Part shown: positions 39,991 to 57,930 of the stretch, one piece after another | Layout: each line of letters starts with the position of its first letter | How positions within the stretch are numbered: position 1 is the first letter of the stretch | Source: a virus | DNA length: 64,000 bases | Reading direction: 5' to 3' (one strand) | Virus record (IMG/VR): IMGVR_UViG_3300002064_000002 | Notes under the pieces: model-generated | Seen by the model: the letters and a program-made list of their open reading frames with translations, nothing else | Databases searched by the model: none | What the model was told of the DNA's origin: nothing | Translations under genes and position numbers: made by a program

Positions 39991-40064
39991 TTGATAGGAT
40001 CTTAAACTTGTTAAATTTGCCGAGGCATCTTTTTTGTACAAAGTACTCTGCAATATACTACTTT

Positions 40065-40337
40065 TTATAAATCTAGCAAATTATATGGATCTAAATACCA
40101 AAACATCTCAAACATATTATCTTCATCGATTATATGCCATAATGCTAATAAGTTCTTGTGCATTAGTTTCTTAGAGTCTGGAGAAAACATTGGATTATCA
40201 TCCTTGTTGATCAATCTCTTACCTTCTATGAACTCACTCTTTTTATACAGATCCTGCAATAGTTTTAATTCATGCCTAGAGATTTTAATCGATTTCTTAG
40301 GAGTATCAGTGAACATTTGCATAATAGGTACCATCAA
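40065..40337 (-). CDS. Hypothetical protein
   Basis: Coupled to the RepL-like gene. Confidence 0.4.
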   Translation of the reverse strand: MMVPIMQMFTDTPKKSIKISRHELKLLQDLYKKSEFIEGKRLINKDDNPMFSPDSKKLMHKNLLALWHIIDEDNMFEMFWYLDPYNLLDL

Positions 40338-40824
40338 ATAAAGTCTTCACATCTTGCCTAATGACATTGCCATTAAATGCTAAATAAGGATTAAAGACCC
40401 AGTATTTAGTATGCACTTCGTTTTTATTGTAAACTTCGAACTTAGCTATAACTCCCAACTTGAATAATTTATCCACAAATTTCATTATAGTATTCCTATT
40501 CTGACCAAGATACTCTGCTATGAAAGAAATAGTACTCTCCGGATGTAAAGGTCTTAGACTATTTGTATAAGCTTCTGCTTGTACTGCCATCTTAAAAGCT
40601 ACAGCTAGTTCTTTATCACTTACTTGTGTTTTAAGTAAATTCCAAGCTTTAGTGTTTATTCTAGTAAATGATTCCATCAGATCAAATTTTATCATTCCAT
40701 TATTTCTCTTCTTCCTAGAAGATGAAGTATTAATCTCCCTTACTTCTCCAGTTCTCTGATTGACTGCCATTAAAGTTTCATCGTGATCCACTCCTACTGT
40801 AGTATCATAATCCTTCTTGCGCAT
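40306..40824 (-). CDS. RepL-like replication/HTH protein
   Basis: IAEYLGQNRNTIMKFVDKLFKLGVI..YWVFNPYLAFNG. Confidence 0.65.
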   Translation of the reverse strand: MRKKDYDTTVGVDHDETLMAVNQRTGEVREINTSSSRKKRNNGMIKFDLMESFTRINTKAWNLLKTQVSDKELAVAFKMAVQAEAYTNSLRPLHPESTISFIAEYLGQNRNTIMKFVDKLFKLGVIAKFEVYNKNEVHTKYWVFNPYLAFNGNVIRQDVKTLFDGTYYANVH

Positions 40825-41470
40825 ATTTTCTGTTTTAATGTTAAATTTAATAGTTCAAATATAGTCGAATTCAATAGCAAAACCAAGCATTTGCACAGTT
40901 ATACGCAAAGATGTGCATATATGTGCGCAAAATCTGCACACATGTGTTCAGCAATATTATTAATTATCAGTGAGTTACAAGCATCTCTTCTTTATTCTTT
41001 ATTAGTTCTTCAAACGCTATAAACCAAAAATAAAAAAATTTTCAAAAAATTTCCAACATTCATATTGACATACCCCTACCCAAAACCATATTTACCCGAT
41101 ATATCTAAGTCTAGAAACCATATCTAGCCATCATATCTAAGTACTCTACCTCTGAATGCTACCCTATGAACCGCCATGGGGGTCAGTGTACCTTCGGTAT
41201 TATTAACAATTAAAGACGTTATTATGCCGCGAATACTGTAGTGGACGGAGAACAAGTCTCCATCACAATCAAGAACAAGTTTACACTATGTTCTGGTGTT
41301 GTAGATACCTCTGCCGAGGTATTGGAGATTGGATAAATCCAATCTATGCATGGGCAATCTAACGATTGCCTGTGCATCTTCACCTTTCAGGATGAATAGA
41401 GACTACGTCTAGAATACGCAATAAATTGCCGTATTACAGACAATTCACTAACACATTAAATCATTAGATT

Positions 41471-41659
41471 ATGATAGTATTTGTATTTTATATTCCTATT
41501 AGAAGTAATGAATTGGCTATTACTGTGATTGCTGATACAGAAATAGAAGCTAAAAAGTTATTGTTAACTCGATATCCTGAACATAAAGGTAAGTTGGAAG
41601 TATTTACTTCTGAACCTTTAGTTAAAGGTGTTTTAAGCATAGAGCAAAAATATAACTAA
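41471..41659 (+). CDS. Early hypothetical protein
   Basis: First plus-strand ORF, with TTCACTAACACATTAAA leader. Confidence 0.55.
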   Translation: MIVFVFYIPIRSNELAITVIADTEIEAKKLLLTRYPEHKGKLEVFTSEPLVKGVLSIEQKYN

Positions 41660-41683
41660 ATACAGTAGCCTTGTAGCTACTGT

Positions 41684-41750
41684 CGTCAACCAGTAGACGT
41701 TAAAATGAAATCTGAAGAGACTGGACGAAACTGCAATTGCAGTCATTTCA
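41684..41750 (+). ncRNA. Type I hammerhead ribozyme
   Basis: Stem I TGAAAT/ATTTCA; core CTGAAGA; stem II G-ACTGGA-C; GAAA; stem III CTGC-AATT-GCAG; GTC cleavage triplet ending at 41744. Loop II ACTGG is complementary to CCAGT in the loop of the upstream hairpin CGTC-AACCAGTA-GACG. Confidence 0.85.
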
Positions 41751-41774
41751 CTAACACATTTAAACTTAAGAATC

Positions 41775-42080
41775 ATGAAGATTTTAATTATTAATACAGA
41801 TAGAGATGAGAATGCTTCTAGTCATATGGTAACATTTACTGATAATGCCATTAGACTACAGTTATACTATAAGTATAGCTCTTTAATGGGTATTTCTGCT
41901 AATCATAGCTGGGATAAGTATACTTTTATTGATGAGAAAGCAGGATACATTGATACATTTAAGACTATGGATAGACTTCAGAAGGAGAATCCATTTTTAG
42001 GTAATGTTTTGATAGTCACTCATGAACAATGGTTAGATAAGCAAGAATCTAATTGGAGAGACAATTCAAGGTATTACTAG
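41775..42080 (+). CDS. Early hypothetical protein
   Basis: ORF directly 3' of the hammerhead cleavage site. Confidence 0.55.
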   Translation: MKILIINTDRDENASSHMVTFTDNAIRLQLYYKYSSLMGISANHSWDKYTFIDEKAGYIDTFKTMDRLQKENPFLGNVLIVTHEQWLDKQESNWRDNSRYY

Positions 42081-42144
42081 TAATATAGCAGAGCTTCTAT
42101 TGTAGGAGCTCTGTTATGTTTTTCACTAACACATTAAAAAACAA

Positions 42145-42336
42145 TTGATTATGGAATTAATTATTTCAAGTAAGAAAATGAAAGAATTGATGAAAACAAT
42201 GGATGATACTCCTAAACCTTTTATTTCTACACAAAGAGATAAAGAGATAGTAAAAGGTATTGAGATTATGGAATCAATGAATGTAAGAAGTATTGAAGTT
42301 GATTTATCAGAAGATAATGCTGATATATTACATTAA
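42145..42336 (+). CDS. Early hypothetical protein
   Basis: Same TTCACTAACACATTAAA leader. Confidence 0.5.
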   Translation: MIMELIISSKKMKELMKTMDDTPKPFISTQRDKEIVKGIEIMESMNVRSIEVDLSEDNADILH

Positions 42337-43289
42337 TATTAGTTGGTATAACAGGGATTAATAGTCTCTGTTATACTAACTATAATTTTCTCCTAGAAGC
42401 AACTCTATAGATATGCTCCGCATATCTGAACAGATCCATCAGGCTATTACATAGCCAGATCATAACTAGTCGGCTATAGATCTGCTATTGAATTCAGTAA
42501 AACCTAGGACAATTGATACGGTAATTGTATCAGCAATTGATATTAGCGACTGGATTCAATAAGTCTAAGAAAAGTCTAGCTGGGTATTGTTAGAGTAAAA
42601 ATAAGATAAAATAAACAATTGTTCTTATCCAATTGCGTAAGGATACACCATACTATTAAATTAGTAGAGCATCATAATATGAGCTTGGATGTGTAGCAAG
42701 GTGCAACCTTGTAAGAACATTGTTTTTTACACCAAATTATATTCTTAATAATTATTGTTAAGAAATAAAAATGACAAATACGAACAACTGTTCGTATAAT
42801 TACATGGTGAAATAGGCTATAAAAGTGACTATTTTTGATGTTTTAAGAAGTTTTAACAAACCCTTAACATTTTATGTCAGAAAAAACCACTAACTTAGAA
42901 AGGAATCTTTTATTTACTTTTAAAAGAACTTAAAAAAACTCTTAAAAACAATCGCTATTAAGAACAAATAGCGTAATACTCTAGAACAGAATATTTATAC
43001 TAACTAATATGCATATTATTAAGGAGTAATGCAACTGTTATAGAGAATTTAAGGGAAATTTATAGAGCAATTGACAATCTCCCCCTTACAATCATTGTTT
43101 AATTAGAGTTTATAACTCCTTGATACTTAATTAGTAAGCTTTGAGTACAAATGATTGAAGACAAACCTATTCCCCCCTTATATCCCTTCATATAAACTTA
43201 CCAAATCCCCCCGATTAGGTAATTATGGCGGCAATCTATAGCCTTATCATCATAATCATTATTAATTCACACATTAAAAGACATTTGTT

Positions 43290-43751
43290 ATGCACCATCC
43301 TCACAGATGCATTACAATGGTTGATAGACTACCTATAGTTGGTCAATACATTAGTTTTGCAGAGAATCCGAATTATTTACCAATACATTTGAAAGTATGT
43401 GAAGTAGTATCTGTTAAGTCAGTTACTGCTAAAGAGTTAGTTGAAGGTCAAGAGGTACCAGAAGGTAATTTGGCTGAGTTACTAGCATTTGCTGTTACTG
43501 CAGAGTTTAAGAATATCACAACTGTTACTATGAAAGTAGAAGGTTTTGATATGAATAATAACTTTGAGCAAGTAGATATAAAGTTTAGTTATCCAGATAA
43601 CTGGAGTCAACTATACTTTATGGAAGATAGACCTGAGCATAAAGGTCATTACCAGAAGAAGTATGAAGAAGCAATGGAGATCTATTTTACAGGAATTATT
43701 GCTGAAGATAAGTATGCTCAACAGAATGAGTGTTGGAACTTCTTAGACTAA
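43290..43751 (+). CDS. Hypothetical protein
   Basis: 153 aa ORF with A-rich leader. Confidence 0.55.
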   Translation: MHHPHRCITMVDRLPIVGQYISFAENPNYLPIHLKVCEVVSVKSVTAKELVEGQEVPEGNLAELLAFAVTAEFKNITTVTMKVEGFDMNNNFEQVDIKFSYPDNWSQLYFMEDRPEHKGHYQKKYEEAMEIYFTGIIAEDKYAQQNECWNFLD

Positions 43752-43886
43752 TACAGCTCTGAATAGCTGACGAATATTCAGGATACAGCCAGAATGATCA
43801 TGAGATTGTTCTGGCTTATTTATTTACATTAACTGTTGGTTCTACTGGTATTTTAATATAAAATTAAATTCACCAAAGTCTTTATT

Positions 43887-44180
43887 ATGACTGTTTTAGA
43901 ACTAAAAGGTCTTATAGATAACCTTGTAGATAATAATCGTGGAGATTATTCTATAAATATCTTAGCTGATAAGTCTACTATTTGTACTCAGGAAGGTTGG
44001 ACAGAGTCGTCCACTTTCAAGAAATTACAGATAGAAGATGTTGGTACTTATGCTACAGAAGTAGTAGAAGTGCCTTGTCCTTGTTGTGATGCGCCTCTTA
44101 CTGAATATTATCCTATTACGGATAATGAAGGTAAGCACATTACTGAAGATGGGTATGTAGTATTACATTTTACATCTTGA
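43887..44180 (+). CDS. Hypothetical protein with a CPCC motif
   Basis: EVPCPCCDAP. Confidence 0.5.
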   Translation: MTVLELKGLIDNLVDNNRGDYSINILADKSTICTQEGWTESSTFKKLQIEDVGTYATEVVEVPCPCCDAPLTEYYPITDNEGKHITEDGYVVLHFTS

Positions 44181-44236
44181 CAAATAGACCAGTAAAACTG
44201 ACAGTTATTTTTATTTAACATTAAAAGACAATAGTT

Positions 44237-44467
44237 ATGAAAATTTTAGTAATAAAGACATGTGATACATGTCCATTCTTTGATAGTAATGAGTTTTTAG
44301 ATCGTGGTTTATACATGACTGGAGATTATGATCCTATTTGTGAAGCACCAGATAGTAAAGTTGAATTTAATTGTAGTAAAAGAAAACCTTTTAGTATTGA
44401 ACAGATAACTGATTTAGTTCCTCCTACAGAATGTCCTTTAAGAGAAGGTATACAAATTACATTATAA
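44237..44467 (+). CDS. Small Cys-containing protein
   Basis: CDTCPFF..PICE..ECPL. Confidence 0.55.
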   Translation: MKILVIKTCDTCPFFDSNEFLDRGLYMTGDYDPICEAPDSKVEFNCSKRKPFSIEQITDLVPPTECPLREGIQITL

Positions 44468-44807
44468 AGAAACTCAATTCAATTGCCAAATGAGAGGTAG
44501 TTGTCTTATAAATTACATGTATTATCACTAAAAAGCAGGTAATACATGGATGCTGATGATACAATCAGTAGTCTCATTCAGATCTAACACCAATAGACAG
44601 AAAAAACAAAACAAGTAGAATTGGAAAATATAAAGCTTTTAGATTTGAAGTCTAATTGCTTTATTGTAAATCTACAAATCTAGGTGGAGACCCGGTTGAT
44701 AGGATTAAGCCAAATAGAGCTTTAGATCAACATCTTTTTAGCTCCCAACAATAGTACTGATCGTGCTTGAGGGAGCTATTTTTATTTACACATATTAAAG
44801 AAAAGTA

Positions 44808-45416
44808 ATGAAACTAAATATAAACTTAGGAGAAGATTGGAAAGATAGAGTGTGGTTTACATCAGACTGGCATCTAGGTCATAAGAATATAGTAGGACCT
44901 AGTGTTAGTAAATGGAAATCAGGTTATAGAGATTTTAAATCATTAGATCAGATGAATGATACTATTATTAATAATATCAATTCTCTAGTTATGCCTGATC
45001 ATATTCTTTTTAATGTAGGAGATATTTGTATTAGAGATAACCCTAGATCTTGGTATGATAGAATTAATTGTAATAATAATTACATCTGTGTAGGTAATCA
45101 TGACAGGTTATCAAAATTAAATCAGATTCCAAACGCTATAGTATCAGACATATTTAAAGTAAAATTTAATAATTTAGATTTAAGAGTATTTATGTCTCAT
45201 TATGCGCATAGAGTATGGGATAGATCTCATCACGGAGCATATCACATCTATGGACACTCTCATAATAGTTTAGCAGATGACTGGGGACTAAGTCTAGATG
45301 TTGGTATTGATTCTATATACGCTAAATTTGGAGAGTATAGGCCAATATCTTACAAAGAATTAGAAAACTATATGAAAAGCCGTGAAATTAAAGCGGTGGA
45401 CCACCATAGAAAATAG
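44808..45416 (+). CDS. Calcineurin-like metallophosphoesterase
   Basis: FTSDWHLGH, VGDI, VGNHD, MSHY and IYGHSH. Confidence 0.85.
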   Translation: MKLNINLGEDWKDRVWFTSDWHLGHKNIVGPSVSKWKSGYRDFKSLDQMNDTIINNINSLVMPDHILFNVGDICIRDNPRSWYDRINCNNNYICVGNHDRLSKLNQIPNAIVSDIFKVKFNNLDLRVFMSHYAHRVWDRSHHGAYHIYGHSHNSLADDWGLSLDVGIDSIYAKFGEYRPISYKELENYMKSREIKAVDHHRK

Positions 45417-45418
45417 TT

Positions 45419-45583
45419 ATGAGAAAGATTAGTCAAATAGAAAAAAGAGCAATAGCTTTTGGAATAGTTTTAGGAGTATTAGGATCTGTAATGTCATTAA
45501 CAGTAGTCTATGGTAATGCTGAAGAAGTATTTTACTTATTACCCCTTCTTATAATTTCATCTTTAATATATTCTAGTTATTAG
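45419..45583 (+). CDS. 54 aa membrane protein with two hydrophobic segments
   Basis: Read by hand (below the track cut-off): MRKISQIEKRAIAFGIVLGVLGSVMSLTVVYGNAEEVFYLLPLLIISSLIYSSY. Confidence 0.5.
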   Translation: MRKISQIEKRAIAFGIVLGVLGSVMSLTVVYGNAEEVFYLLPLLIISSLIYSSY

Positions 45584-45698
45584 ATTTAACCTGAAATCTT
45601 ATAGATTCGAGGTTAGATTCTAGTTTTTGTCAGCGCCTTCTTTGTTGAACTCTCAGTTCACAGGAGGCGCTTTTTATTCACACACAAATCAATTACAC

Positions 45699-46010
45699 AT
45701 GTTAAGTTTATTCAACCAGACTGGTCCAGTACCAGCATTAGACAAAATAGAACCATTAAGAATGGCAGCACTTATGTCTCACTTTGTAGACATGAGAGTA
45801 TTTGAAGAACGTTATGGCCGTGATATATTACAAAAAGCTATTGCAGATGGTGTATTTAGCTATGTCATTACAGAACAAGGTGATATTAATGCTAAAATGT
45901 GCAATCCTTCTGCTATATATCAGCAGATATTTCCAGATTATATGAGAGAGATGTTTATTAAAGCATTTGCTCCTAAGTTTGATATCAATCGTTTTACAAA
46001 TTTAAATTAA
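45699..46010 (+). CDS. Hypothetical protein
   Basis: Start moved to ATG 45699, which follows the hairpin and A-rich leader. Confidence 0.5.
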   Translation: MLSLFNQTGPVPALDKIEPLRMAALMSHFVDMRVFEERYGRDILQKAIADGVFSYVITEQGDINAKMCNPSAIYQQIFPDYMREMFIKAFAPKFDINRFTNLN

Positions 46011-46075
46011 GAATTCAATCAGAGTTGAACCTGTTCCTCAATGTCATAGGGTTCTGAGTTCTTCTCTGGTTTTAC

Positions 46076-46131
46076 GGGGCAGTGCAAGAGATATCATGGG
46101 ATATCCAAGGGTTCGACTCCCTTCTGCTCCA
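46076..46131 (+). ncRNA. 56 nt tRNA-like mini-RNA with Ala-type acceptor, no D stem and no anticodon loop
   Basis: Acceptor GGGGCAG/CTGCTCC with G3-U70 and A73; T arm AAGGG-TTCGACT-CCCTT; central hairpin GATATC-ATGG-GATATC; no encoded CCA. Confidence 0.7.
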
Positions 46132-46224
46132 CAATAGAATATAAACCAGACTGCTTTAAATAGCACCACACGCTTAATGTGGGTCTGGTTTTATTCATAA
46201 TATTTATTATTAACAATTAAATCA

Positions 46225-46803
46225 TTGATAATGAAGAAAATACAGACAATATTTGATAGAAATTGGGAAGAAGATCGCAAATGCATAGATAAATTAATAG
46301 TAGATGCTGAAGATTTGTACGATTGTTTTGCTACTGAGAAAATAGATGGCACTAATATCAGAGTAACTATCAGGTCTGGTAAAGTAATGAGAGTAGAAAA
46401 GAGAAGAAATCCATCCAAGCAGCAGAAAGCTGAAGGTATAGTTGAGCCATGGTATGTAGATGCGTCCAGACAGGAAAACCAAGACAAATGGATATTCGAT
46501 GCAGTAGATTCTACAGATTTTAGTGAGATAAAGGATGGTGAATGGAGTGCTGAAGCATTTGGAGAAAACATACAAGGAAATCCTTTACAGTTGAAAGGCA
46601 ATCAAGTATTTGTATTTAGTTGTAAAGAACAGTTGAAGAAGATTACTTTTAAAACCAGACCTACATCATTTCAAGAACTGAAAGCACACCTTAAAGAACT
46701 TAAATCTTTTTTTAATCCTGAAGTAGGTATAGAAGGTATAGTTTGGCATAATCTACATTATGATGATATGTACAAGATAAAAGTCAAAGACTTTACTTAT
46801 TAA
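46225..46803 (+). CDS. ATP-dependent RNA ligase-like nucleotidyltransferase
   Basis: Motif I TEKIDGTNIR, EAFGENIQGN, motif IV IEGIVW, motif V YKIKVKDF. Confidence 0.8.
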   Translation: MIMKKIQTIFDRNWEEDRKCIDKLIVDAEDLYDCFATEKIDGTNIRVTIRSGKVMRVEKRRNPSKQQKAEGIVEPWYVDASRQENQDKWIFDAVDSTDFSEIKDGEWSAEAFGENIQGNPLQLKGNQVFVFSCKEQLKKITFKTRPTSFQELKAHLKELKSFFNPEVGIEGIVWHNLHYDDMYKIKVKDFTY

Positions 46804-46822
46804 TAATTAAACTCATACACAA

Positions 46823-47200
46823 ATGAAAGGTAGATATAAATTATGGCTTGGAATAGCAGCCATAGGATTAATAGCTGGAGGATTACAAGTAGATTGGCAT
46901 TGTATTGATATACATCCGAATTTAAAAGATGAGACATTATCATTTTCATGTGCAGCTGGTAGTATTGTATTAACTACATTGTTCTATATACCCGCTGCTC
47001 TTTTTTTTATAGCTCAAATTATAGGTTTACTAATTATAATTGGACTTGTAAAGTATACAAACAAACAAAATAAATTTGTCAATATCTATGAGATGGAAGC
47101 AGATGAAATAATTTCAAATAAATGGGAATATTCTATTATACCTGTAGTAACAGTAGTAGTAGTAAAATTTATTAACCGATGGGCTGATTCTAAGCTTTAG
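46823..47200 (+). CDS. Membrane protein, paralogue 1 of 3
   Basis: Hydrophobic segments; ends INRWADSKL. Confidence 0.6.
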   Translation: MKGRYKLWLGIAAIGLIAGGLQVDWHCIDIHPNLKDETLSFSCAAGSIVLTTLFYIPAALFFIAQIIGLLIIIGLVKYTNKQNKFVNIYEMEADEIISNKWEYSIIPVVTVVVVKFINRWADSKL

Positions 47201-47219
47201 AAACTAAAAACTAAAAACT

Positions 47220-47570
47220 ATGAAAGAGAGATTAATAAAACCCAGGTATTATTTTAGAGCTTTAGTATTAATAGCTCTAGGTATTATGATATATCCTACA
47301 ATAGTAAATACAGTTATACCTTGGATACAGAATTGGGATGCCAGATCTATAAGAATTTTTATTATATTGGTAATAGGATATAATATTATAGTTTTTCTTA
47401 TTTATGGAATTTCTCAACAACCAACTTGGAAAGATTTAAAACAATGGGAAGCAGATGGTAGCTTAGAAAGATTTCTTAGTATTAATTTTATTTGTATTAC
47501 AATAACTATTGTATACCATATATTTACTGGAATAAATGCATTTGAAAACTATTTAGATAAAAACTTATGA
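47220..47570 (+). CDS. Membrane protein, paralogue 2 of 3
   Basis: Ends FENYLDKNL. Confidence 0.6.
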   Translation: MKERLIKPRYYFRALVLIALGIMIYPTIVNTVIPWIQNWDARSIRIFIILVIGYNIIVFLIYGISQQPTWKDLKQWEADGSLERFLSINFICITITIVYHIFTGINAFENYLDKNL

Positions 47571-47914
47571 AAAAATTAAGACCAAGGCATTACTTAAGAA
47601 TATTCCTAGGTATTTGTTTTATGATATTAATATGGACATCTTTTGATGTTAAAATCATATCATTTCTAAATGATATATATACATGGATTACATGTCTCAA
47701 TAAAGAAGAAATAATTGGCTTTTCTATTGTATACAGTTTATTTGCTGCTTTTATACAAGGAAGTTTGATATATGATAGTAAAGATGAAGGATGGTTTTAT
47801 TATTTTGTCTGTATAAATATAATCACAATACCACTTTTGATTATATACTATGGTATCAAGATACCTGTATTAAATTACATTAAATTAGAAGAATACTTAG
47901 ACTCAAAACTATGA
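47567..47914 (+). CDS. Membrane protein, paralogue 3 of 3
   Basis: Ends LEEYLDSKL. Confidence 0.6.
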   Translation: MKKLRPRHYLRIFLGICFMILIWTSFDVKIISFLNDIYTWITCLNKEEIIGFSIVYSLFAAFIQGSLIYDSKDEGWFYYFVCINIITIPLLIIYYGIKIPVLNYIKLEEYLDSKL

Positions 47915-48336
47915 AGATATTTAAACAATTAAGACTGCCATCTAAGAAGTTAATGGCATTGACAGCTGGATTTATATTCTTCGGAGGATTAAATTTATTG
48001 ATAGCTAATTACATAGCTACTATACCTGGAAATACAATCTACTATTTAATGTTATCAGCATTTACGGTATTCCAATTCTATGGTACAGTAGAGTACGCTA
48101 GTAATTTCACTAATCATACTGTAGATATTGATCTAAGATCTTATGAAGAAAAAGAATTAGACAATATACAGCATCAAAGACAGCAATTAGAAGCAGCACG
48201 TAATAATCTTATTCTTACCGCAATACATGATAATTGGAGTAAAGAAGAAGCTATGGACAAATTAGAACTTCTAGATCTTATGGCTGAACGTATAGAGCAG
48301 CCATTATTATTAAATAAAGAAAATGACATAGTATGA
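47911..48336 (+). CDS. Membrane protein with C-terminal coiled coil
   Basis: Two hydrophobic segments followed by a helical tail. Confidence 0.5.
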   Translation: MKIFKQLRLPSKKLMALTAGFIFFGGLNLLIANYIATIPGNTIYYLMLSAFTVFQFYGTVEYASNFTNHTVDIDLRSYEEKELDNIQHQRQQLEAARNNLILTAIHDNWSKEEAMDKLELLDLMAERIEQPLLLNKENDIV

Positions 48337-48533
48337 GTAAGATAAAGATAGAAGTTGATGCACAAGTTACTAGAATGCTTGCTGGAACTATTCCAATAGA
48401 CATGGTAGTGACTTCAGTAAATTTTGATGAAAATACTTTTAATTGTGGCCCTTGGACATTTGATTTGGATACAGGTATAGAAATAGATGATGAAATATCA
48501 GATGTTGTATCTTTTATAAAAGAGATGCAATAA
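48333..48533 (+). CDS. Hypothetical protein
   Basis: Coupled ORF. Confidence 0.5.
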   Translation: MSKIKIEVDAQVTRMLAGTIPIDMVVTSVNFDENTFNCGPWTFDLDTGIEIDDEISDVVSFIKEMQ

Positions 48534-48831
48534 AAATTAACACTATTCTATCGTTTTTAGTAAGGTGCAGCGCCCTCTCAGAGCCTGCACCTGCTTTTAT
48601 TCATACATAAAGAAATTAATATGAAACAGAAAGATGTACGTTTACTAGATGGATCATATCCTATAAGAATGTTAGAGCCTAATACAGAAGTTATTGTATT
48701 AGATGACTCAAAACAACCAAAGAAGTCTAAAAAGAGAAGAAGACAAAAGTCAAGATAAATGTGTGTGAATGGTCTGGCGTCAGAAATGGCGTCGGACTTC
48801 ACATCTAATTCATAAACTAAAAATAATAAAA

Positions 48832-48981
48832 ATGGAAATATTAATATGGTTAGTAATTTTAATAGTATTAGGACCTGTAATACTCTCACTGGTAATATAT
48901 GCAGGTGGATTTGTAGTATTTATAATTACTACTATAATAGAATTATTAACAGGCAATAAGCCACCAGATAAAAGAGGATAA
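48832..48981 (+). CDS. Small membrane protein
   Basis: Likely start at ATG 48832 (MEILIWLVIL). Confidence 0.45.
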   Translation: MEILIWLVILIVLGPVILSLVIYAGGFVVFIITTIIELLTGNKPPDKRG

Positions 48982-48982
48982 T

Positions 48983-49291
48983 ATGGAGCTAATATGTATA
49001 AATGATGTATTTATAGCAGAATTAAAGGCATTGATTCCAGTACGGCCAATAAACCAGAAGCTTTACAGGGTAAGGGATCTGTTTCAATTGAAGACAGGTC
49101 CTAAGAAGAATTTTTGGGCAGTACATTTGGTAGAGATACAAAATCCTAAAATAGAGTCTGCTATACCAGGAATGATGTATGAACCTTCATTTAATCTAGA
49201 TCGATTTACTACACTTAGTGGTCATCCACCTAGTGCAGAAGAAATAGAGAATTTTATTAACAATTTAAAGACAATTAAAGATGAAAGGTAA
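48983..49291 (+). CDS. Hypothetical beta-barrel (SH3-like) protein
   Basis: LICIND..P..KLYRV..VHLVEI..FNLDRF pattern. Confidence 0.45.
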   Translation: MELICINDVFIAELKALIPVRPINQKLYRVRDLFQLKTGPKKNFWAVHLVEIQNPKIESAIPGMMYEPSFNLDRFTTLSGHPPSAEEIENFINNLKTIKDER

Positions 49292-49817
49292 AAATTTAGT
49301 GTATGGCTGTATAGCTATAATGGTATGTGTATTAGGATTTTTTTCTTATTACACCGGTACGCACATGTATGAGACACCTCTACAAGAAAAAGCAGGACAT
49401 GTAGCAATATTAGCATCGTTTGCTATAATACTTTTATTATTATGTATAGCACAAGTAGGTAGTGCTATACATTTAATGATTGTAGTAGGATTTATTTGTT
49501 TGATATCAGTTACTGGTATTCTAGCACAAACTGCTGATAATTTTGATGAAAGAGAATTTCATTATATATCTTTACCACAATGTTTTTTAGAATGTGAAAA
49601 TAGTGAATTTACTATTTTTCCTTGTACTGTAGATTATGAAGTATATCATGATATGATTCAAATAAAACCTTGTAATGAAGATATTCAAATTACATACATT
49701 TGGGGAGATTGTACAGAGACTTCTGTTAGTCATCAATGTCATAGTAATGATATGTATTTTGAAATGGGAGATAAGATAGTATTTACAGAAATATTTACTT
49801 CTCTTAGTAAGAATTAA
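49281..49817 (+). CDS. Membrane-anchored or exported Cys-containing protein
   Basis: Three hydrophobic segments ending GILA-Q, then a Cys-containing soluble domain. Confidence 0.55.
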   Translation: MKGKNLVYGCIAIMVCVLGFFSYYTGTHMYETPLQEKAGHVAILASFAIILLLLCIAQVGSAIHLMIVVGFICLISVTGILAQTADNFDEREFHYISLPQCFLECENSEFTIFPCTVDYEVYHDMIQIKPCNEDIQITYIWGDCTETSVSHQCHSNDMYFEMGDKIVFTEIFTSLSKN

Positions 49818-49898
49818 GGTTATATTTTGGTATGTCAGATCCCTGGGCTTTTTAGAATGTGCCTGGGGATTTTTTTATTCACACAAAAAAAAAAGATT

Positions 49899-50054
49899 AT
49901 GATAGTATTCATAGGGCTTATAATTTGGGTTTTACTAATGGTTTATGCTCCTGATTCTTATGAGAAATTAAAAGCATTTGTATTAGAGATATGGGAAGCT
50001 ATACACACTTGTATAGTTAGTATACTAGACATTTTAATGGACAATAAAAGATAA
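49899..50054 (+). CDS. Small membrane protein
   Basis: Likely start at ATG 49899, after the hairpin and leader. Confidence 0.45.
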   Translation: MIVFIGLIIWVLLMVYAPDSYEKLKAFVLEIWEAIHTCIVSILDILMDNKR

Positions 50055-50059
50055 ATGTT

Positions 50060-50281
50060 ATGAAATTTAAACCTGGAGATCGAATTAAAAGAATAGAAGG
50101 GAAAGAAACATTTTTAAAAACTGGAAATATTTATACTGTAGCAAATATGAATCCTCTTAATGACTGCAGAGTAATATTGGAAGGAGCTGATCATGATTCA
50201 ACTGATGATGAAGATCAAGGATTTTACGTAGATTATTTCAAGATGGTTACTTCTATTGATTTTTCTTACACAATTTATTAA
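50060..50281 (+). CDS. SH3/KOW-like FSYxIY-family protein, copy 1
   Basis: MKFKPGDRIKRI..GNIYTV..FKMVTSIDFSYTIY. Confidence 0.75.
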   Translation: MKFKPGDRIKRIEGKETFLKTGNIYTVANMNPLNDCRVILEGADHDSTDDEDQGFYVDYFKMVTSIDFSYTIY

Positions 50282-50292
50282 AACACACAGCA

Positions 50293-51579
50293 ATGAAATA
50301 TTTATGTATTGAGAATTCAGGACTCATTCTTCCTGATGATTTTAGTCTTATGGGTACATCTACTAAAGTAGGTAATAATAACAAAATAGGCCAATATGGA
50401 TCCGGTTTATGTTATGCTATAGGAGGACTTATGAGACCACCTCATAAATTACCTGTAGTATATTCTGGAAAAGAACAGATAACACTTGAAGCAAAAACTA
50501 TAGACTATAGAGATGCTCCAGTAAAAGTGCTACACGTTAATGGTGAAAAGACTTCTATTACTGAAAATCTTGGTAAAGAAGCTAAATGGTCTACATGGAT
50601 GCTTTGCAGGGAAATTCTGAGCAATGCCATAGATGAAGAAAATTTCAATTTATATCAAACTGATGAAATATTACCAATAGAAGATAAGAGTCAGATTTAT
50701 ATTTATATGAATGATGAGATAGATATGTTTCTAAAAAACTACAATCATTATTTTGCTTTTGATAGAAAAGAAGATTATACAGATGAAAAAGGTAATCGAT
50801 TCTTTTTAAAGAAATTTAAAAGCCCTATGGTAATATATCGTAAAGGCATCAGATGTTATGAAAATACTTATGCAGATGAATCTTTAGTAGATATAGATTT
50901 TGCTGATATTTATATTAATGAGTCTAGGGTAGCAGACATACATCAAATATATAGTAGAATTAAAGATGTGGTAAGTAATGCAGATGTTTCTGATAAAGTA
51001 ATGATAAAACTATTACAGCAAGGAAAAATTGATAAATCTCTTATTCCAGCTGTATCTAGTGTGTCTGATGAATTTTTTGAATCTATTAAAAGAATAAGCC
51101 AATTCACTAATATTATAACTAAAGAGATTGACCCTAATATAACTGGTTTAGAAGGAGATTCAGATATTGTATTACCTACTTCTTATTATCTAGAATTTCA
51201 AAAAAGAGGTTTTGTAGAAAATAAGTTTGAAATTATACAAGGGGCTCCAAGTGATTTTACTAAAAGTAAAAACATAGATCAAGATAAAATGAAAGAGATT
51301 AAATTTTATCTAAATCATTTCATGGAGAATAAAGGTATAAAAATACATGTAGGTAAATGGAGTAGTTCTGTTTATGATACTATACACAGTAATGAACATA
51401 ATTGTTTTTTCATAAAGAAACATATGTTTAATAATCGTGATACACCTACAATAGCTAGTAAGCTATTAAGAAATAGAAGTCAAGAATATTATTATAATAT
51501 ACTGGAGAAGAATTACAAAGAAGCTGTACTTGCTCAAGATTTTAACGAGCAACCAGTAGACGATTCTCTTCCATTCTAA
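50293..51579 (+). CDS. Circularly permuted GHKL ATPase with an SSB-like acidic tail
   Basis: IENSG and KIGQYGSGLCYAI precede REILSNAIDE; the protein ends PVDDSLPF. Confidence 0.7.
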   Translation: MKYLCIENSGLILPDDFSLMGTSTKVGNNNKIGQYGSGLCYAIGGLMRPPHKLPVVYSGKEQITLEAKTIDYRDAPVKVLHVNGEKTSITENLGKEAKWSTWMLCREILSNAIDEENFNLYQTDEILPIEDKSQIYIYMNDEIDMFLKNYNHYFAFDRKEDYTDEKGNRFFLKKFKSPMVIYRKGIRCYENTYADESLVDIDFADIYINESRVADIHQIYSRIKDVVSNADVSDKVMIKLLQQGKIDKSLIPAVSSVSDEFFESIKRISQFTNIITKEIDPNITGLEGDSDIVLPTSYYLEFQKRGFVENKFEIIQGAPSDFTKSKNIDQDKMKEIKFYLNHFMENKGIKIHVGKWSSSVYDTIHSNEHNCFFIKKHMFNNRDTPTIASKLLRNRSQEYYYNILEKNYKEAVLAQDFNEQPVDDSLPF

Positions 51580-51667
51580 GATGCTTTAGTTAATAATTCC
51601 GTTTTACAAGGCTCATCGCAATAATGTGGTGAGCCTTTTTATTCACATTTAAAAAATTAATACAGTT

Positions 51668-52135
51668 ATGGGTAAGAAGAAAAGTTCAAACGCAGAAATA
51701 GTTGAAGATTTAGATGCACAAATTGCTGCAATTGAATCTGGAGTAATGCCAGTAGGTGGAGTAACTACTACTACGTTACAAGGATTTGGTGATATTAATA
51801 ATATTACTGAATATCCTATTCTAAGAGCTGCTATGGCTAGTATATTAGTCAAGAGTGCAGCAGAAGAGAAAGCTGATAAATTATTAGCTGGTGAAGAAAC
51901 AGTGCCTGTTATTAAAATTGAAGGTAATACTCCAGATCAATGGACAGCCTTATTGAAGAACAGATATGTTGTGATAACCAATGATGCAGATCTGAAAGAA
52001 TTGAAAGAGCTTAGAGAAGAGTTTAGACAATTAGTAACAGATGAAGAGAAGCAAAAGATGGCAGAGAAAAAGAAGGAGAAGTTGCTGAAAAAATTTGCTG
52101 ACAGAGGTATTAACAATTCTACATTATTAAGATAA
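51668..52135 (+). CDS. Hypothetical protein
   Basis: 155 aa ORF after hairpin and leader. Confidence 0.6.
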   Translation: MGKKKSSNAEIVEDLDAQIAAIESGVMPVGGVTTTTLQGFGDINNITEYPILRAAMASILVKSAAEEKADKLLAGEETVPVIKIEGNTPDQWTALLKNRYVVITNDADLKELKELREEFRQLVTDEEKQKMAEKKKEKLLKKFADRGINNSTLLR

Positions 52136-52353
52136 TGGTACGCTTTAAACCAGGAGATAGGGTTAGGAGAATTGGTAGAAGTAATTCTTATATTAATAAA
52201 GGTAATTTAGCTACAGTAAGTGAAGTTTCTAAAGATCACAAAAGGATTCTTTTAGTAGAATATAAAGATTCTGGTTATGGAGTAGATTGTGGATTCTATT
52301 CTAATTATTTTGAACTTGTATCTTCTGCTAATTTTTCTTATTTAATCTATTAA
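52135..52353 (+). CDS. SH3/KOW-like FSYxIY-family protein, copy 2
   Basis: MVRFKPGDRVRRI..FELVSSANFSYLIY. Confidence 0.75.
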   Translation: MVRFKPGDRVRRIGRSNSYINKGNLATVSEVSKDHKRILLVEYKDSGYGVDCGFYSNYFELVSSANFSYLIY

Positions 52354-52476
52354 GTTAATTATTTAGTCCATTATACAGAGAGCGAGGTGAAAGCCTTGCT
52401 CTCTTTTTATTAACAATTAAAAAGACGAAGGAATAAGTAATATTATGTATATTGTGCAAACAATTTATCTAATATT

Positions 52477-53388
52477 ATGAAAGGAAAAATATACAGTTTG
52501 TCAGATCCATTTACATTAGAAGTAAGGTATATAGGATTTACTAGATCTACAATTAGTACTCGTTATAGTCAACATAAGCATGAAGCTATTAAGAAAAAAA
52601 AACTGAGTCATTTATATAATTGGTTTAGGGTTTGTATAGATAAAGGAAAATTACCACTGGTTGAAGTAAAAGAAGATAACATACCTATAGAAAAGTGGCA
52701 GGAGAGAGAACAACATTGGATAGACCAGTATGGGAATCTTACTAATCAAAAAAAAGGCGGGTGTGGAGTACATTTAAACACTAATAAAAAGGGCAGACTA
52801 AGAAGTATAGAAGCTAAAAGAATAGAAATAATACAATTAGATTTAAACGGAAATTACCTTAAAAGCTGGAGTTCTATGAGAAATGTAGAAAGACATTTTA
52901 GTGGGAAAAACACAGGATTACTAGCTAAAGCTAGTAAGACTATGGGAACAGCTTACGGCTATCTTTGGGTAAGAGGTGATGAATATGATTCTAATAAAGT
53001 TTATTTACCTAAGAATAAAGTAAAAATAGAAATATTTTTGTTTTGTGCATTTACTAGAAAATTTATAAAGAGGTATAATTGCAAAGCAGACTTAGATAGA
53101 GAATTAGATTTTGGGACTTCTACTGCTTGTTTAAGAAATAATCTATTATTAAGGAATACATATTACATTAGAGATAGCATAGTGGATAATTTAGTGCCTC
53201 CTACACCTACAGATGTATATCTATTCAACAAAAAGTACTATACTACTTACACTATTTTATGTAGAGAAAATAATATTCAGAATAAACTACATAACGTTAA
53301 GTTTAAAAAAAGTTTAATTACTAAAGCAGTAACTGAAGAAATGATACAACAACTAAGACTTTCTTTTAAAAACAGAAGAGGAAAATAA
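52477..53388 (+). CDS. Free-standing GIY-YIG homing endonuclease with a NUMOD1-like domain
   Basis: KIYSLSDP..RYIGFT..RYSQH..E..WI..LTN; IIQLDLNGNYLKSWSSM. Confidence 0.8.
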   Translation: MKGKIYSLSDPFTLEVRYIGFTRSTISTRYSQHKHEAIKKKKLSHLYNWFRVCIDKGKLPLVEVKEDNIPIEKWQEREQHWIDQYGNLTNQKKGGCGVHLNTNKKGRLRSIEAKRIEIIQLDLNGNYLKSWSSMRNVERHFSGKNTGLLAKASKTMGTAYGYLWVRGDEYDSNKVYLPKNKVKIEIFLFCAFTRKFIKRYNCKADLDRELDFGTSTACLRNNLLLRNTYYIRDSIVDNLVPPTPTDVYLFNKKYYTTYTILCRENNIQNKLHNVKFKKSLITKAVTEEMIQQLRLSFKNRRGK

Positions 53389-53416
53389 TTTTATTAACCG
53401 ATTAAATTTACACATC

Positions 53417-53629
53417 ATGCAAAAATCAGATACCCCCCACATTGAACTTAAAAGAGAAGACATTGTAGAGTTCAGACATTTGGCTTCTAAGACCAGGTTT
53501 GTAGTAAAACAAGTGCTAGGATCGGATGTACTTTTAGATAACCCTAAAAGTCCTAGAAGAAGACAAGGAAAAGATCTTCTTACTATGCCTATGAGAGATC
53601 TTGTTAAGATTAATGTTAAAGTGAATTAA
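53417..53629 (+). CDS. Small SH3/KOW-like protein without the FSYxIY tail
   Basis: LKREDIVEF..FVVKQV. Confidence 0.45.
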   Translation: MQKSDTPHIELKREDIVEFRHLASKTRFVVKQVLGSDVLLDNPKSPRRRQGKDLLTMPMRDLVKINVKVN

Positions 53630-53781
53630 CTTGGTATGTTATTTCAGAGTGGCAGATATCTATCTGCTGCTCTGTTTTTAAACCTTGAATTACAATGGAA
53701 ACAAATACAGATAAAGAAGATTTAACAATGCTCATAGCATTAGGTATAATTTTATTAGTGAATTTATTAAGCAGTTAAAGA

Positions 53782-54063
53782 ATGAATAAAAAATATTATA
53801 TATTAAAGAAAGGTAAAATGTTCTTCACTATAGAAGAAACTACTGAAGAAAGTAAGACTAGCGACTTACTTACAATAATGACAAGTATTATTTTATTTGG
53901 TTTATTAGGATTATATTCAGTAACGTATTCTACTACTTTATTCCCAGAAATTATATTGATAATTATAAGTGTAGTTTTTGTTCTTAAAAAGGGGAAAAGT
54001 GATAAAGAAGCAACTTATACTAAAGATGCTTTGATTATTAAACTGGAAAATGAACTGGAATGA
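53782..54063 (+). CDS. Membrane protein
   Basis: Two hydrophobic segments. Confidence 0.5.
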   Translation: MNKKYYILKKGKMFFTIEETTEESKTSDLLTIMTSIILFGLLGLYSVTYSTTLFPEIILIIISVVFVLKKGKSDKEATYTKDALIIKLENELE

Positions 54064-54254
54064 AATTTAAAAAAGGTGATAGAATAAAAAGAATTCATAA
54101 TAGTTCTTCATTAGAGAAAGGTAAAATTTATATTGTAAAAAAAATACACGGAACTTATTTGTCAGTAGAAGATAGTGCAAGAGAAAAACCGACTTATTTT
54201 TCTAAATATTTTGAACTGGTATCTGCAGCTAATTTTACTTACACTATTTATTAA
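54060..54254 (+). CDS. SH3/KOW-like FSYxIY-family protein, copy 3
   Basis: MKFKKGDRIKRI..FELVSAANFTYTIY. Confidence 0.75.
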   Translation: MKFKKGDRIKRIHNSSSLEKGKIYIVKKIHGTYLSVEDSAREKPTYFSKYFELVSAANFTYTIY

Positions 54255-54264
54255 ATCATTAATT

Positions 54265-54486
54265 ATGTTGAAAGAAGGAGATTTAAAAGTAGGAGATGAA
54301 GTTGTTGCTTTGGATACAGGTTATAGTAATAAATTGACTATTGGACACATTTATACAGTAAAAGATCTGGCAACTGAAGATAAACTTAGAAATGGCATTC
54401 TTCTACATGGCAGACCTAGTGCATATTGGCAAAGATATTCTAGTTTTAAACTAGTAACTAAAGAATTTTCATATTCTATTTATTAA
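54265..54486 (+). CDS. SH3/KOW-like FSYxIY-family protein, copy 4
   Basis: Start at ATG 54265: MLKEGDLKVGDEVVAL..FKLVTKEFSYSIY. Confidence 0.75.
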   Translation: MLKEGDLKVGDEVVALDTGYSNKLTIGHIYTVKDLATEDKLRNGILLHGRPSAYWQRYSSFKLVTKEFSYSIY

Positions 54487-54503
54487 CAATTAAAAACACA
54501 CAC

Positions 54504-55460
54504 ATGAAAAAAAATAAATTTGATGGTATAAGCGTAATGCTTATCATAGCAATAATAATTACACTAGTTTTTTTAGTACAAACACTTACAGCACAAGAAT
54601 CAGAAATTAGTTTTTGTAATAAAGAATGTACAAGTGTAGCATATCAATCTGCTTGTCTTCAATGTGAAGATGTTCGTATTGAAATTAATCCTGTTGTACC
54701 TTACACTATAAGTAATGATAGTCTTATAGTACAGTATAGTTCTAATGAAGAATTACAGATAACTATATATTTTACATTTGGTAGTTGTGTAGGTAGCAAT
54801 TGTGATCTAGATGTGGATCAACTACAGTACACAGTTTACTATACGCCTCCTTGTTGCGATCAATATATCTGTAGTTCAGAATATGATTGTACAATAGAGG
54901 AGACTTTTATAGATACTACTTTAAGTATATCTAATACTGGATGTAATGTTTATAATGTAGTAGAGCACATAGCCATACCACCAAGAGTAGATACTTTAGT
55001 TGTAGTGGATACAATTACATTAACACAAATAGATACTTTAGTTGTAGTAGAAACAGAGATTCAGATACAAATTGATACTATTACATTGTTAGAATTTGTG
55101 CCTATTACTGAATGGGATACTATTTATGTATATGATACAACTGTATTAGAAATAGTTTATAAAGAAGAATTAGTTGATGATATAGTTTATGTACCTAATG
55201 CAGTTAATCCTAATAATAGTAATTATGAGAATAGTTATTTTATGATATTTTCTAAAAAAGATTATTTAATAAAAGATTTAGAGATATTTGATAGATGGGG
55301 GAATTTAGTGCATGATTTACATATGACTAGTACTAATGTACAAGCATGGGACTGCACGTATAGAAATCAAAGCGTATCTGGAGTCTATAATTACAAATTT
55401 GAAGTAGATACTGGATCTGGATGGGTATTTTATAAAGGAAATTTTATAATTATTAAATAA
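54504..55460 (+). CDS. Secreted protein with a type B T9SS C-terminal domain (gliding-motility-associated CTD, CHU_C-like)
   Basis: Signal peptide ending LTA-Q; Cys-rich domain; D-T-[ILT] stalk; C-terminal YVPNAVNPN..F.I..LEIFDRWGNLV..WDCTY..GVYNYKF..KGNFIIIK. Confidence 0.85.
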   Translation: MKKNKFDGISVMLIIAIIITLVFLVQTLTAQESEISFCNKECTSVAYQSACLQCEDVRIEINPVVPYTISNDSLIVQYSSNEELQITIYFTFGSCVGSNCDLDVDQLQYTVYYTPPCCDQYICSSEYDCTIEETFIDTTLSISNTGCNVYNVVEHIAIPPRVDTLVVVDTITLTQIDTLVVVETEIQIQIDTITLLEFVPITEWDTIYVYDTTVLEIVYKEELVDDIVYVPNAVNPNNSNYENSYFMIFSKKDYLIKDLEIFDRWGNLVHDLHMTSTNVQAWDCTYRNQSVSGVYNYKFEVDTGSGWVFYKGNFIIIK

Positions 55461-55660
55461 TGATTTTTAAAAAAGGAGATTTAGTAAAAAGAATTAAAAG
55501 TAATTGGGGAGGAATTAATGTAGGAGATATTTATATTGTAGCAGAAGATACAAAGCCTGGTTTAAACCATGTTAAACTTACTATAGATTCTGAGATTAAT
55601 TATAGAAAAGACTTATTTAAGTTAATATCTAGTACACAATTCTCTTATACAATATATTAA
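55460..55660 (+). CDS. SH3/KOW-like FSYxIY-family protein, copy 5
   Basis: MIFKKGDLVKRI..FKLISSTQFSYTIY. Confidence 0.75.
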   Translation: MIFKKGDLVKRIKSNWGGINVGDIYIVAEDTKPGLNHVKLTIDSEINYRKDLFKLISSTQFSYTIY

Positions 55661-55662
55661 TT

Positions 55663-55875
55663 ATGAAAAGAAAATTATTTAAGAAAGGCGACAGAGTAAA
55701 AAGAATAAATAATTCTATTGGAAATATAATTAAAGGAAAAATCTACACTATATTAAAAGATGAAATTTCTGAACATCAAGAATTACTTTTAGTAGAATGT
55801 CCTAGTAAATATTACTATTATTCTAGCTCATTTAGATTAGTATCTTCTGTAGAATTTTCATACACAATATATTAA
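55663..55875 (+). CDS. SH3/KOW-like FSYxIY-family protein, copy 6
   Basis: LFKKGDRVKRI..FRLVSSVEFSYTIY. Confidence 0.75.
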   Translation: MKRKLFKKGDRVKRINNSIGNIIKGKIYTILKDEISEHQELLLVECPSKYYYYSSSFRLVSSVEFSYTIY

Positions 55876-55877
55876 TT

Positions 55878-56099
55878 ATGAAACAACGAACATTTAAAGT
55901 AGGAAACAAGGTAAAGAGAGTTCCAAATTATTGTGGAAATCTTTTTAAAAAGGATCAGATCTATACGATCTCAGAGTTAATACTACAAAGAGATAAAACT
56001 ATAAATCTAGGAATTAAAGGTGTACCTTATATAAATGGCTATGATTCTAATTTATTTGTACTTGTAGAAAAGACTGAATTTTCATACTCAATTTATTAA
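55878..56099 (+). CDS. SH3/KOW-like FSYxIY-family protein, copy 7
   Basis: TFKVGNKVKRV..FVLVEKTEFSYSIY. Confidence 0.75.
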   Translation: MKQRTFKVGNKVKRVPNYCGNLFKKDQIYTISELILQRDKTINLGIKGVPYINGYDSNLFVLVEKTEFSYSIY

Positions 56100-56153
56100 A
56101 ACAAACTATGAACGGAAACTTATAATAGATTTTATAATCCATAAATATATATT

Positions 56154-56876: not shown

Positions 56877-56935
56877 GATGAAGAATAAAAATACTATGAG
56901 CAAACACATTTTATTCAATCTTAAATTATAATATT

Positions 56936-57718: not shown

Positions 57719-57741
57719 TTAACTTTTTAAAAACTAATAAC

Positions 57742-57930
57742 ATGGAAAAGATTATTTTAAAAAACGTTACAGTAGTAGGTAAGATAGACTTAGATGCTCT
57801 TAATGAAAGAGAAAGAAAAGTTAAGCAGAGAAGAGCAAAAAATAAAAAAAGAGAAAAAGTAAAACTGGTATTCAACCAGAGAAATTTACAAATAAAAAGC
57901 TTATTGGACAGGAAGTTCAATCAAGCTTAA
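57742..57930 (+). CDS. Small basic protein
   Basis: Lys/Arg-rich 62 aa ORF. Confidence 0.5.
   Translation: MEKIILKNVTVVGKIDLDALNERERKVKQRRAKNKKREKVKLVFNQRNLQIKSLLDRKFNQA

Follow-up and report, generated by a model that had tools for sequence, protein, structure and literature searches.

What would a self-cleaving RNA do in the first intergenic gap of a phage gene module, and would the gene before it or the gene after it gain from the cut? The question is raised by a stretch of 64,000 nucleotides (IMG/VR record IMGVR_UViG_3300002064_000002), here called the window, which comes from an algal or marine metagenome and belongs to an uncultured crAss-like phage. In an earlier note, made from the letters alone, a complete hammerhead ribozyme had been described at positions 41684-41750 of the plus strand, and it had been proposed that the ribozyme may create a defined, decay-resistant 5' end for an early gene.

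Hammerhead cleavage leaves a 2',3'-cyclic phosphate on the upstream RNA and a 5'-OH on the downstream RNA. What hammerheads do biologically in bacteria and phages is for the most part still unproven. According to a long-standing proposal, phage hammerheads cut long polycistronic transcripts into gene-length mRNAs, and clustered hammerheads flank genes in phages and prophages (PMC3088659). In the haloviruses HF1 and HF2, a hammerhead lies 13 nt before the early helicase gene, and the mapped early 5' end is the cut site (PMC3088659).

Genomic context of the element

On the minus strand, from 33.6 kb down to position 1, the window encodes the large terminase, the portal, the major head protein and an 1813-aa protein with a Crassvirus muzzle domain; on the plus strand, from 41.5 kb onward, it encodes small ORFs, a phosphoesterase, a weak RNA-ligase match and a DNA polymerase. 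The rightward module is the replication module and presumably early. The stretch is present in the DNA runs of one algae-metagenome sample, with no RNA run listed as containing 41000-43000 or 41200-42400, and a blastn search of positions 40000-44000 against GenBank phage records gave no match. The ribozyme occupies the first intergenic gap of the rightward module, beginning 23 nt past the stop codon of a 62-aa ORF, with a distance of 30 nt between its cut and the ATG of a 101-aa ORF. The 101-aa ORF has 33 homologues (44-100% identity) in marine and other metagenomes, none of them named, and the PHROGs and Pfam searches gave no match for the three small ORFs (including 41471..41659). The features of this junction are the following.

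41471..41659 (+): upstream small ORF, 62 aa (ORF list), whose mRNA would end with the ribozyme after cleavage
41662..41683 (+): hairpin of 8 bp, directly past the stop codon and abutting the ribozyme (MFE fold)
C41684-G41699 (+): pseudoknot-partner hairpin of 4 bp with loop AACCAGUA (Rfam alignment, model positions 2-18)
41690-41694 (+): pseudoknot strand 1, CCAGU in loop AACCAGUA, complementary to ACUGG 41720-41724 over 5 bp
Between the 4-bp hairpin and stem I (+): linker UUAAAA (sequence)
U41706-U41711 (+): stem I 5' strand UGAAAU, 6 bp with A41745-A41750
41712-41718 (+): catalytic core CUGAAGA (C3-A9, N7 = A; Rfam alignment)
41719-41726 (+): stem II, the one pair G10.1-C11.1 (G41719-C41726), with loop ACUGGA (sequence and Rfam alignment)
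41720-41724 (+): pseudoknot strand 2, ACUGG in the stem II loop, pairing with CCAGU
41727-41729 (+): core G12 A13 A14 (GAA; Rfam alignment)
41730-41743 (+): stem III ACUGC/GCAGU, 5 bp with an AAUU loop, first pair A15.1-U16.1 (A41730-U41743)
41744/41745 (+): predicted cut site, C17 = 41744 and A1.1 = 41745 (position from the family model)
41745-41750 (+): stem I 3' strand AUUUCA, overlapping the first four bases of the gene-start motif
41775..42080 (+): downstream ORF, 101 aa, conserved hypothetical, with its ATG 30 nt past the cut

The 8-bp hairpin is followed on the plus strand by CGUCAACC, with no U-tract. Judged by the combination of a G+C-rich stem and a U-tract it is not an intrinsic terminator on this strand, and the terminator scan lists it on the minus strand only.

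Architecture of the ribozyme and its match to Rfam

A single match at the curated thresholds of Rfam was found in the 64-kb window, namely RF03152 (RAGATH-1 hammerhead) at 41683-41749 (+), with a score of 58.3 bits against a gathering score of 56.3 and an E-value of 3.5e-07 for the whole window on both strands. The alignment is full-length and covers model positions 1-77, and the match is far beyond chance, with a margin of just 2 bits over the gathering cut-off. In a permissive scan of the window (E<=1), RF03152 was the sole ribozyme, the other match being a weak tmRNA-like one elsewhere, and one RAGATH-1 copy is present in the 64 kb. The canonical Rfam models Hammerhead_1, _3, _II, HH9 and HH10 gave no match at E<=10 within 41000-42500, as expected because stem II is a single pair, and no ribozyme family other than RF03152 was found in the same interval at the same threshold.

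The hammerhead core is complete (C3 U4 G5 A6 N7 G8 A9, G12 A13 A14, the pair A15.1-U16.1 and an H17 that is not G), and the Rfam structure line gives a type I topology, in which stem I is open and stems II and III are closed. The full core, the 6-bp stem I and a cut at 41744/41745 had all been claimed in the earlier note, and each of them was recovered at these positions in the sequence and in the covariance-model alignment. The one-pair stem II around ACUGGA (G41719-C41726) was confirmed, and the proposed kissing loop has its basis in the complementarity of CCAGU (41690-41694) and ACUGG (41720-41724). A comparison with the Rfam hammerhead models had been suggested as a check, and one of them, RF03152, matched above its gathering score. 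By every sequence and structure criterion tested, 41684-41750 (+) is a member of the RAGATH-1 family, and its catalysis is predicted.

The nearest-neighbour MFE structure of the element is a competing fold, in which GACUG (41719-23) pairs with CAGUC (41740-44), at -12.6 kcal/mol. The hammerhead fold reaches -8.9 kcal/mol when the pseudoknot is left out of the calculation, and approximately -5.1 kcal/mol more comes from the pseudoknot duplex. Since the competing fold is more stable than the pseudoknot-free hammerhead, misfolding is possible; on paper, the pseudoknot would tip the balance toward the hammerhead fold. In a published hammerhead with a 1-bp stem II, the pseudoknot was essential and could be restored by compensatory mutation, and the ribozyme was fast at 0.5 mM Mg2+ (PMC3088659, 2011). 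The element in the window is similar in that a minimal stem II is compensated by a pseudoknot. The published construct is, however, of type II, with a pseudoknot between loop I and the tail past stem II, whereas the element in the window has a type I topology and finds its partner in a separate hairpin upstream.

Variation and covariation in the RAGATH-1 family

Relatives were collected with an exact-pattern scan for the core and the stem II loop, which matched 36 stretches of IMG/VR and 88 of the metagenome contigs; after de-duplication and an upstream-hairpin filter, 76 unique ribozymes were parsed. It is important to mention that the scan pattern itself fixes GAG-ACU(N0-2)GGA-CGAAAC, so that the form of stem II in the members is no independent test, and that the filter demanded at least 4 bp of loop pairing: paired percentages lean to the structure, and loop-type covariation and the variety of pair types do not. 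The 76 come from viral and metagenome contigs, and in them the two loops, that of stem II and that of the hairpin, vary together in five forms.

Stem II loop CUGG, hairpin loop CCAG
Stem II loop CUAGG, hairpin loop CCUAG
Stem II loop CUUGG, hairpin loop CCAAG
Stem II loop CUGGG, hairpin loop CCCAG
Stem II loop CUCGG, hairpin loop CCGAG

The matched loops of the first 25 IMG/VR members pair over 4.6 bp on average and mismatched cross-pairs over 2.5 bp, and 5 bp are reached by just 0.3% of the cross-pairs between members with different stem II loops. Each position of stems I and III and of the hairpin stem has 3-6 pair types in the 76 members, with 4-6 at positions 3-5 of stem III across the family. 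A 1-bp stem II with a pseudoknot is a recurrent architecture of the curated family RF03152 and not a new design.

With this family the element shares the type I topology, the 1-bp stem II, the loop ACU(N)GGA, the 4-bp upstream hairpin that pairs with the stem II loop, the A-rich linker and the phage or metagenome context. Its own traits are that both pseudoknot loops have the short (CUGG) form, a frequent one among the sampled contigs, that the hairpin loop ends in AGUA, that N7 is A and that stem III is very short. The AGUA end, in place of the usual AGGA, occurs among the 76 members only in the window and in its relative L074 (see below); it shifts the pseudoknot by one register and extends it to the 5 bp CCAGU/ACUGG. 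N7 is A in 9/76 members and U in 67/76.

With respect to the neighbouring genes, the predicted cut lies 21-55 nt before the start codon of the next ORF (>=40 aa) in 39 of the 71 family members with a downstream ORF, and 21-35 nt before it in 24 of those 39, the distance in the window being 30 nt. Five whole phage records carry 1-4 RAGATH-1 copies each, and multiple copies are clustered. An ATTAAC-type sequence that follows the cut in other phages was considered as a counterpart of the window's gene-start motif and was dropped, ATTAACAATTWAAA showing no enrichment over a reversed-pattern control in five other RAGATH-1-bearing phage records. The name of the family is taken from the Rfam label; RAGATH is not mentioned in the main text of Weinberg et al. 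2017 (PMC5737381).

Conservation of the ribozyme in related loci

A mosaic relative of the window was found in L074, a 2.5-kb marine metagenome contig. The block of similarity (92% identity) extends from 41662, where the hairpin just before the ribozyme begins, to 42086, and the differences are distributed as follows.

41662-41750 (+), hairpin and ribozyme: 1 difference in 89 nt
41751-41774 (+), leader: 2 differences in 24 nt
41775-42080 (+), downstream ORF: 31 differences in 306 nt, 92% nucleotide identity

For the ribozyme against the ORF, a Fisher test computed on near-identical counts (1/83) gave p = 0.006. The hairpin 41662-41683 is 100% identical in L074, and the sole change in the ribozyme, A41709G, turns an A-U pair of stem I into G·U and keeps the pair. 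The L074 copy scores 56.2 bits with RF03152, just under the gathering score of 56.3. As far as sequence comparison goes, these counts show purifying conservation of the ribozyme in L074. The upstream ORF has been swapped for an unrelated sequence in this contig, its motif copy being retained, and the third small ORF is absent; the ribozyme and the downstream ORF remain together despite the upstream replacement.

Along 40049-42603, the comparison of L074 with the window reveals cassette mosaicism, and the missing third ORF took its terminator and motif along. The gene-start motif and the hairpin 41662-41683 mark the mosaic breakpoints, and punctuation elements may serve as recombination joints.

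RF03152 was absent from 17 loci retrieved via the rep-like protein and the 101-aa ORF, and it was absent at E<=0.1 from seven loci encoding homologues of the 101-aa ORF. No ribozyme is found in six other lineages with such homologues (L037/L142, L144, L145/146, L147/148, L150 and L151), and the ribozyme is therefore dispensable for that gene family. Two of these loci (L144:780-880 and L147:1900-2000, both +) have a common element with a potential H-type pseudoknot, AGGA..GUGCAU..UCCU..AUGCAC, approximately 40 nt before the ATG of the homologue. It has no Rfam match and may be another RNA device in the slot of the ribozyme.

A type III hammerhead before the same gene family

In one further lineage, L143, a homologue with 56% identity to the 101-aa ORF is preceded by a complete minimal type III hammerhead (L143:1920-1973, +), which stands 27 nt from the ATG. 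The cut site of this hammerhead is GUA; stem I has 7 bp, stem II is GAUC/GAUC, stem III has 6 bp, and the MFE structure is exactly the three-way junction. Rfam did not report this element at E<=10; it was accepted on the basis of manual parsing, of the MFE fold and of 28 similar type III copies in viral contigs. This sub-type is common in viral contigs (IMG/VR), and 24/26 parsed cases have a start codon 14-31 nt past their 3' end.

Like the ribozyme in the window, type III phage hammerheads with a GAUC/GAUC stem II are placed just upstream of start codons, and the L143 example precedes the same gene family. Their topology is permuted, however, so that the ribozyme would stay on the 5' end of the downstream RNA, whereas here it would stay on the 3' end of the upstream RNA; unlike the element in the window, they form stem II with the normal 4 bp and lack a separate pseudoknot hairpin. 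Judging from the two sequences, two hammerhead architectures have been recruited independently before one gene family, a putative convergence that is mildly surprising.

The gene-start motif downstream of the cut

The earlier note had also claimed that nearly the same leader precedes three genes. The window indeed contains just three exact copies of the 14-mer TTCACTAACACATT (at 41444, 41747 and 42122), each of them 13-15 nt before an ATG; the 14-mer turned out to be a sub-type of a wider motif, approximately TTTATT(A/C)ACA(A/C)(A/T)TTAAA, with 23 plus-strand copies in the module. The three copies are the following.

41444..41460 (+): motif copy 1 (TTCACTAACACATTAAA), with an imperfect hairpin upstream and no ribozyme
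41747..41765 (+): motif copy 2, TTCACTAACACATT(T)AAA, exact 14-mer (position-weight-matrix scan)
42122..42138 (+): motif copy 3, with a hairpin (~42089-42117) upstream, then a T-rich run

The hairpin of copy 3 is terminator-like by eye and is absent from the list of the terminator scan. No hidden ribozyme was found before copies 1 and 3 at E<=10.

A weight matrix trained on the upstream regions of plus-strand ORFs gave 24 plus-strand matches in the window and 1 minus-strand match, where approximately 2 per strand are expected by chance, and 23 of the 24 lie within 41199-63686. The motif typically stands 7-13 nt before the ATG. Terminator-like hairpins are five-fold enriched in 41000-60999 (23 vs 4.2 expected), and many of them have a U-tract that doubles as the opening bases of the gene-start motif; sigma-70-type promoters are not enriched in the same interval (113 vs 122.8 expected). 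Because the motif is mostly fused to terminator-like hairpins, the ribozyme can be said to fill the slot that a hairpin with a U-tract holds before most genes of the module, and, the motif being usually preceded by such hairpins and not by ribozymes, that leader needs no ribozyme.

One motif copy, 41199-41215 (+), is followed by a non-coding stretch instead of a gene. For this stretch of 228 nt, 41216-41443 (+), folding gives a multi-branch structure at -79.5 kcal/mol (z = -6.3 vs shuffles), and no Rfam family matches it. In phage phi14:2, two early intergenic RNAs are highly expressed, and no common motif was found upstream of the early transcripts (bioRxiv 10.1101/2020.03.07.982082). By analogy, the structured stretch may correspond to these RNAs.

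The gene-start motif may be an early or middle promoter, or a restart signal. We lean somewhat toward this reading, because of the strand and module specificity of the motif, its fusion to terminators and its copy before a non-coding RNA; that the motif is instead an RNA-level leader signal, as its tight spacing to the ATG suggests, we consider possible but rather less probable.

Eight small proteins end in F-S/T-Y-x-I-Y, and in four of them (50274, 54247, 54479 and 56092, +) the last two codons with the stop (ATT TAT TAA) also serve as the first 8 nt of the motif of the next gene. Part of this invariant tail may therefore be under constraint as nucleotide sequence. Several gene starts of the minus strand (operon starts in the region 9760-38355, e.g. 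before 38355, 36667, 17840 and 9760) have an AT-rich motif of another kind, AATAATAATTATT-like, which may be the equivalent of the plus-strand motif for late or middle genes.

Possible role of the cleavage

We consider it fairly probable that the type I RAGATH-1 hammerhead cuts the rightward transcript after C41744 and acts as intercistronic punctuation that provides a short, unstructured leader downstream. A rightward transcript coming through the ORF 41471-41659 would enter the gap, fold and cut itself. [quoted passage not shown] The upstream fragment would retain the whole ribozyme as a compact 3' end with a 2',3'-cyclic phosphate, and the first base of the downstream fragment would be A41745, carrying a 5'-OH; from there it is 2 nt to the motif and 30 nt to the ATG of the ORF 41775-42080. 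The two cistrons would thereby be uncoupled, and the downstream gene would receive a short, unstructured leader. Cleavage in vivo, co-transcription of both ORFs and effects on stability or translation are what we infer from this arrangement. That a 5'-OH end would resist decay, as had been proposed, is a suggestion from general knowledge of 5'-end-dependent RNases.

The proposal that the ribozyme sets the 5' end of the next gene gains from the positional bias in 39/71 family members, from its linkage with the downstream gene in L074 and from the HF1/HF2 precedent. It loses from the motif-bearing leaders elsewhere that have no ribozyme, from the six lineages in which the ribozyme is missing and from the possibility that the motif is a promoter. 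Like the hammerheads of phages, prophages and HF1/HF2, the element lies between genes, shortly ahead of a start codon, in an early or replication module; the hosts and the sub-type are different, and here one copy is present in 64 kb. In synthetic insulators of the RiboJ type, a self-cleaving ribozyme before the coding region standardises the 5' end of the mRNA. The likeness to RiboJ is limited to the ribozyme standing ahead of a coding region, as RiboJ is engineered and, unlike in the window, the body of the ribozyme stays on the downstream mRNA. In fungal and plant RNA viruses, self-cleavage alone is reported to enable translation initiation (PMC13725137), which is a distant analogy only.

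With the motif as a promoter, the downstream gene would have a 5' end of its own, and the benefit of the cut would go to the upstream mRNA or to insulation. The same physical cut would then have a different beneficiary: the motif would be the promoter of the module units, and the ribozyme, in place of a terminator, would end and protect the upstream mRNA by a structured 3' end with a cyclic phosphate and insulate the next unit from read-through. We regard this as somewhat unlikely. It agrees with the strand and module specificity of the motif (24 plus vs 1 minus, ~2 expected), with its fusion to the U-tracts of strong terminator-like hairpins, with the copy at 41199 ahead of the 228-nt structured non-coding stretch (z = -6.3) and with the lack of a U-tract after the hairpin 41662-41683, which leaves the junction with no intrinsic terminator. 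Nevertheless, L074 exchanged the upstream gene and the ribozyme stayed with the downstream one, the spacing of 7-13 nt between motif and ATG would make very short leaders and also fits an RNA-level signal, and the early transcripts of phi14:2 have no common upstream motif (bioRxiv 10.1101/2020.03.07.982082).

The patchy distribution of the ribozyme, which among approximately eight lineages with the downstream gene is found only in the window and L074 and, as another hammerhead type, in L143, would also suit an active or decaying hitch-hiker at a cassette recombination junction with little effect on the expression of its neighbours; so would the L074/window breakpoints at the motif and at the hairpin beside the ribozyme, and the 1-4 clustered copies per phage genome. 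Such a passenger is improbable in our view, as the element is far better conserved than the adjacent coding sequence, with a single change that preserves its pair, as the position relative to start codons is biased family-wide, and as two hammerhead architectures were apparently recruited independently before the same gene family. It is very improbable, finally, that the model match is an inactive look-alike, trapped in a competing fold or otherwise non-catalytic. The score near the cut-off, the competing MFE of -12.6 kcal/mol and the short stem III would fit this, but all invariant core positions are intact, the element is conserved in L074, its 5-bp pseudoknot is at least as long as in most family members, and the published pseudoknotted hammerhead with a 1-bp stem II is fast at 0.5 mM Mg2+ (PMC3088659).

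A broader form of the favoured punctuation role, which we put forward tentatively and hold to be unlikely as a whole, is that in hosts without Shine-Dalgarno pairing some early crAss-like genes need, for their translation, a free, unstructured 5' end near the start codon, and that ribozymes and terminator/promoter units are interchangeable, hence the recruitment of two hammerhead types. The unit of hairpin, U-tract and motif would normally supply the 5' end, and where it is missing a ribozyme would do so.

The structure and the family of the element are already known, and the sequence in the window is a new example only. The locus is a compact test case for the role of phage hammerheads: it combines a single ribozyme, a predicted cut 30 nt before a conserved gene, ribozyme-free comparators and one comparator of another type. 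The slots with a terminator hairpin and a motif in the same module allow testing whether cleavage substitutes for termination and re-initiation in crAss-like phages.

Other observations in the window

Several further features were observed in the course of the analysis. In the region 3-5 kb downstream of the ribozyme, a phosphoesterase is encoded at 44808-45416 (+; phrog_547, E = 1e-38), and a weak RNA-ligase match is found at 46231-46803 (+; RLIG1 27.3 bits, and RNA_ligase 23 bits, below the cut-off). Cyclic-phosphate and 5'-OH ends, such as hammerhead cleavage produces, are substrates of enzymes of the phosphoesterase and RNA-ligase types. At 46076-46134 (+), a mini tRNA-like element gave a sub-threshold match to the tmRNA family (34.2 bits vs a gathering score of 47). 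ARAGORN called a tRNA-Pyl (anticodon CUA) at 15591-15677 (-), inside the ORF of the 1813-aa muzzle protein; this call is probably spurious, but it is of relevance to a possible TAG reassignment. Repeats of the TGCACA/TGTGCA type are present at ~40890-40950, beside the rep-like gene (40306-40824, -), and they may be origin iterons.
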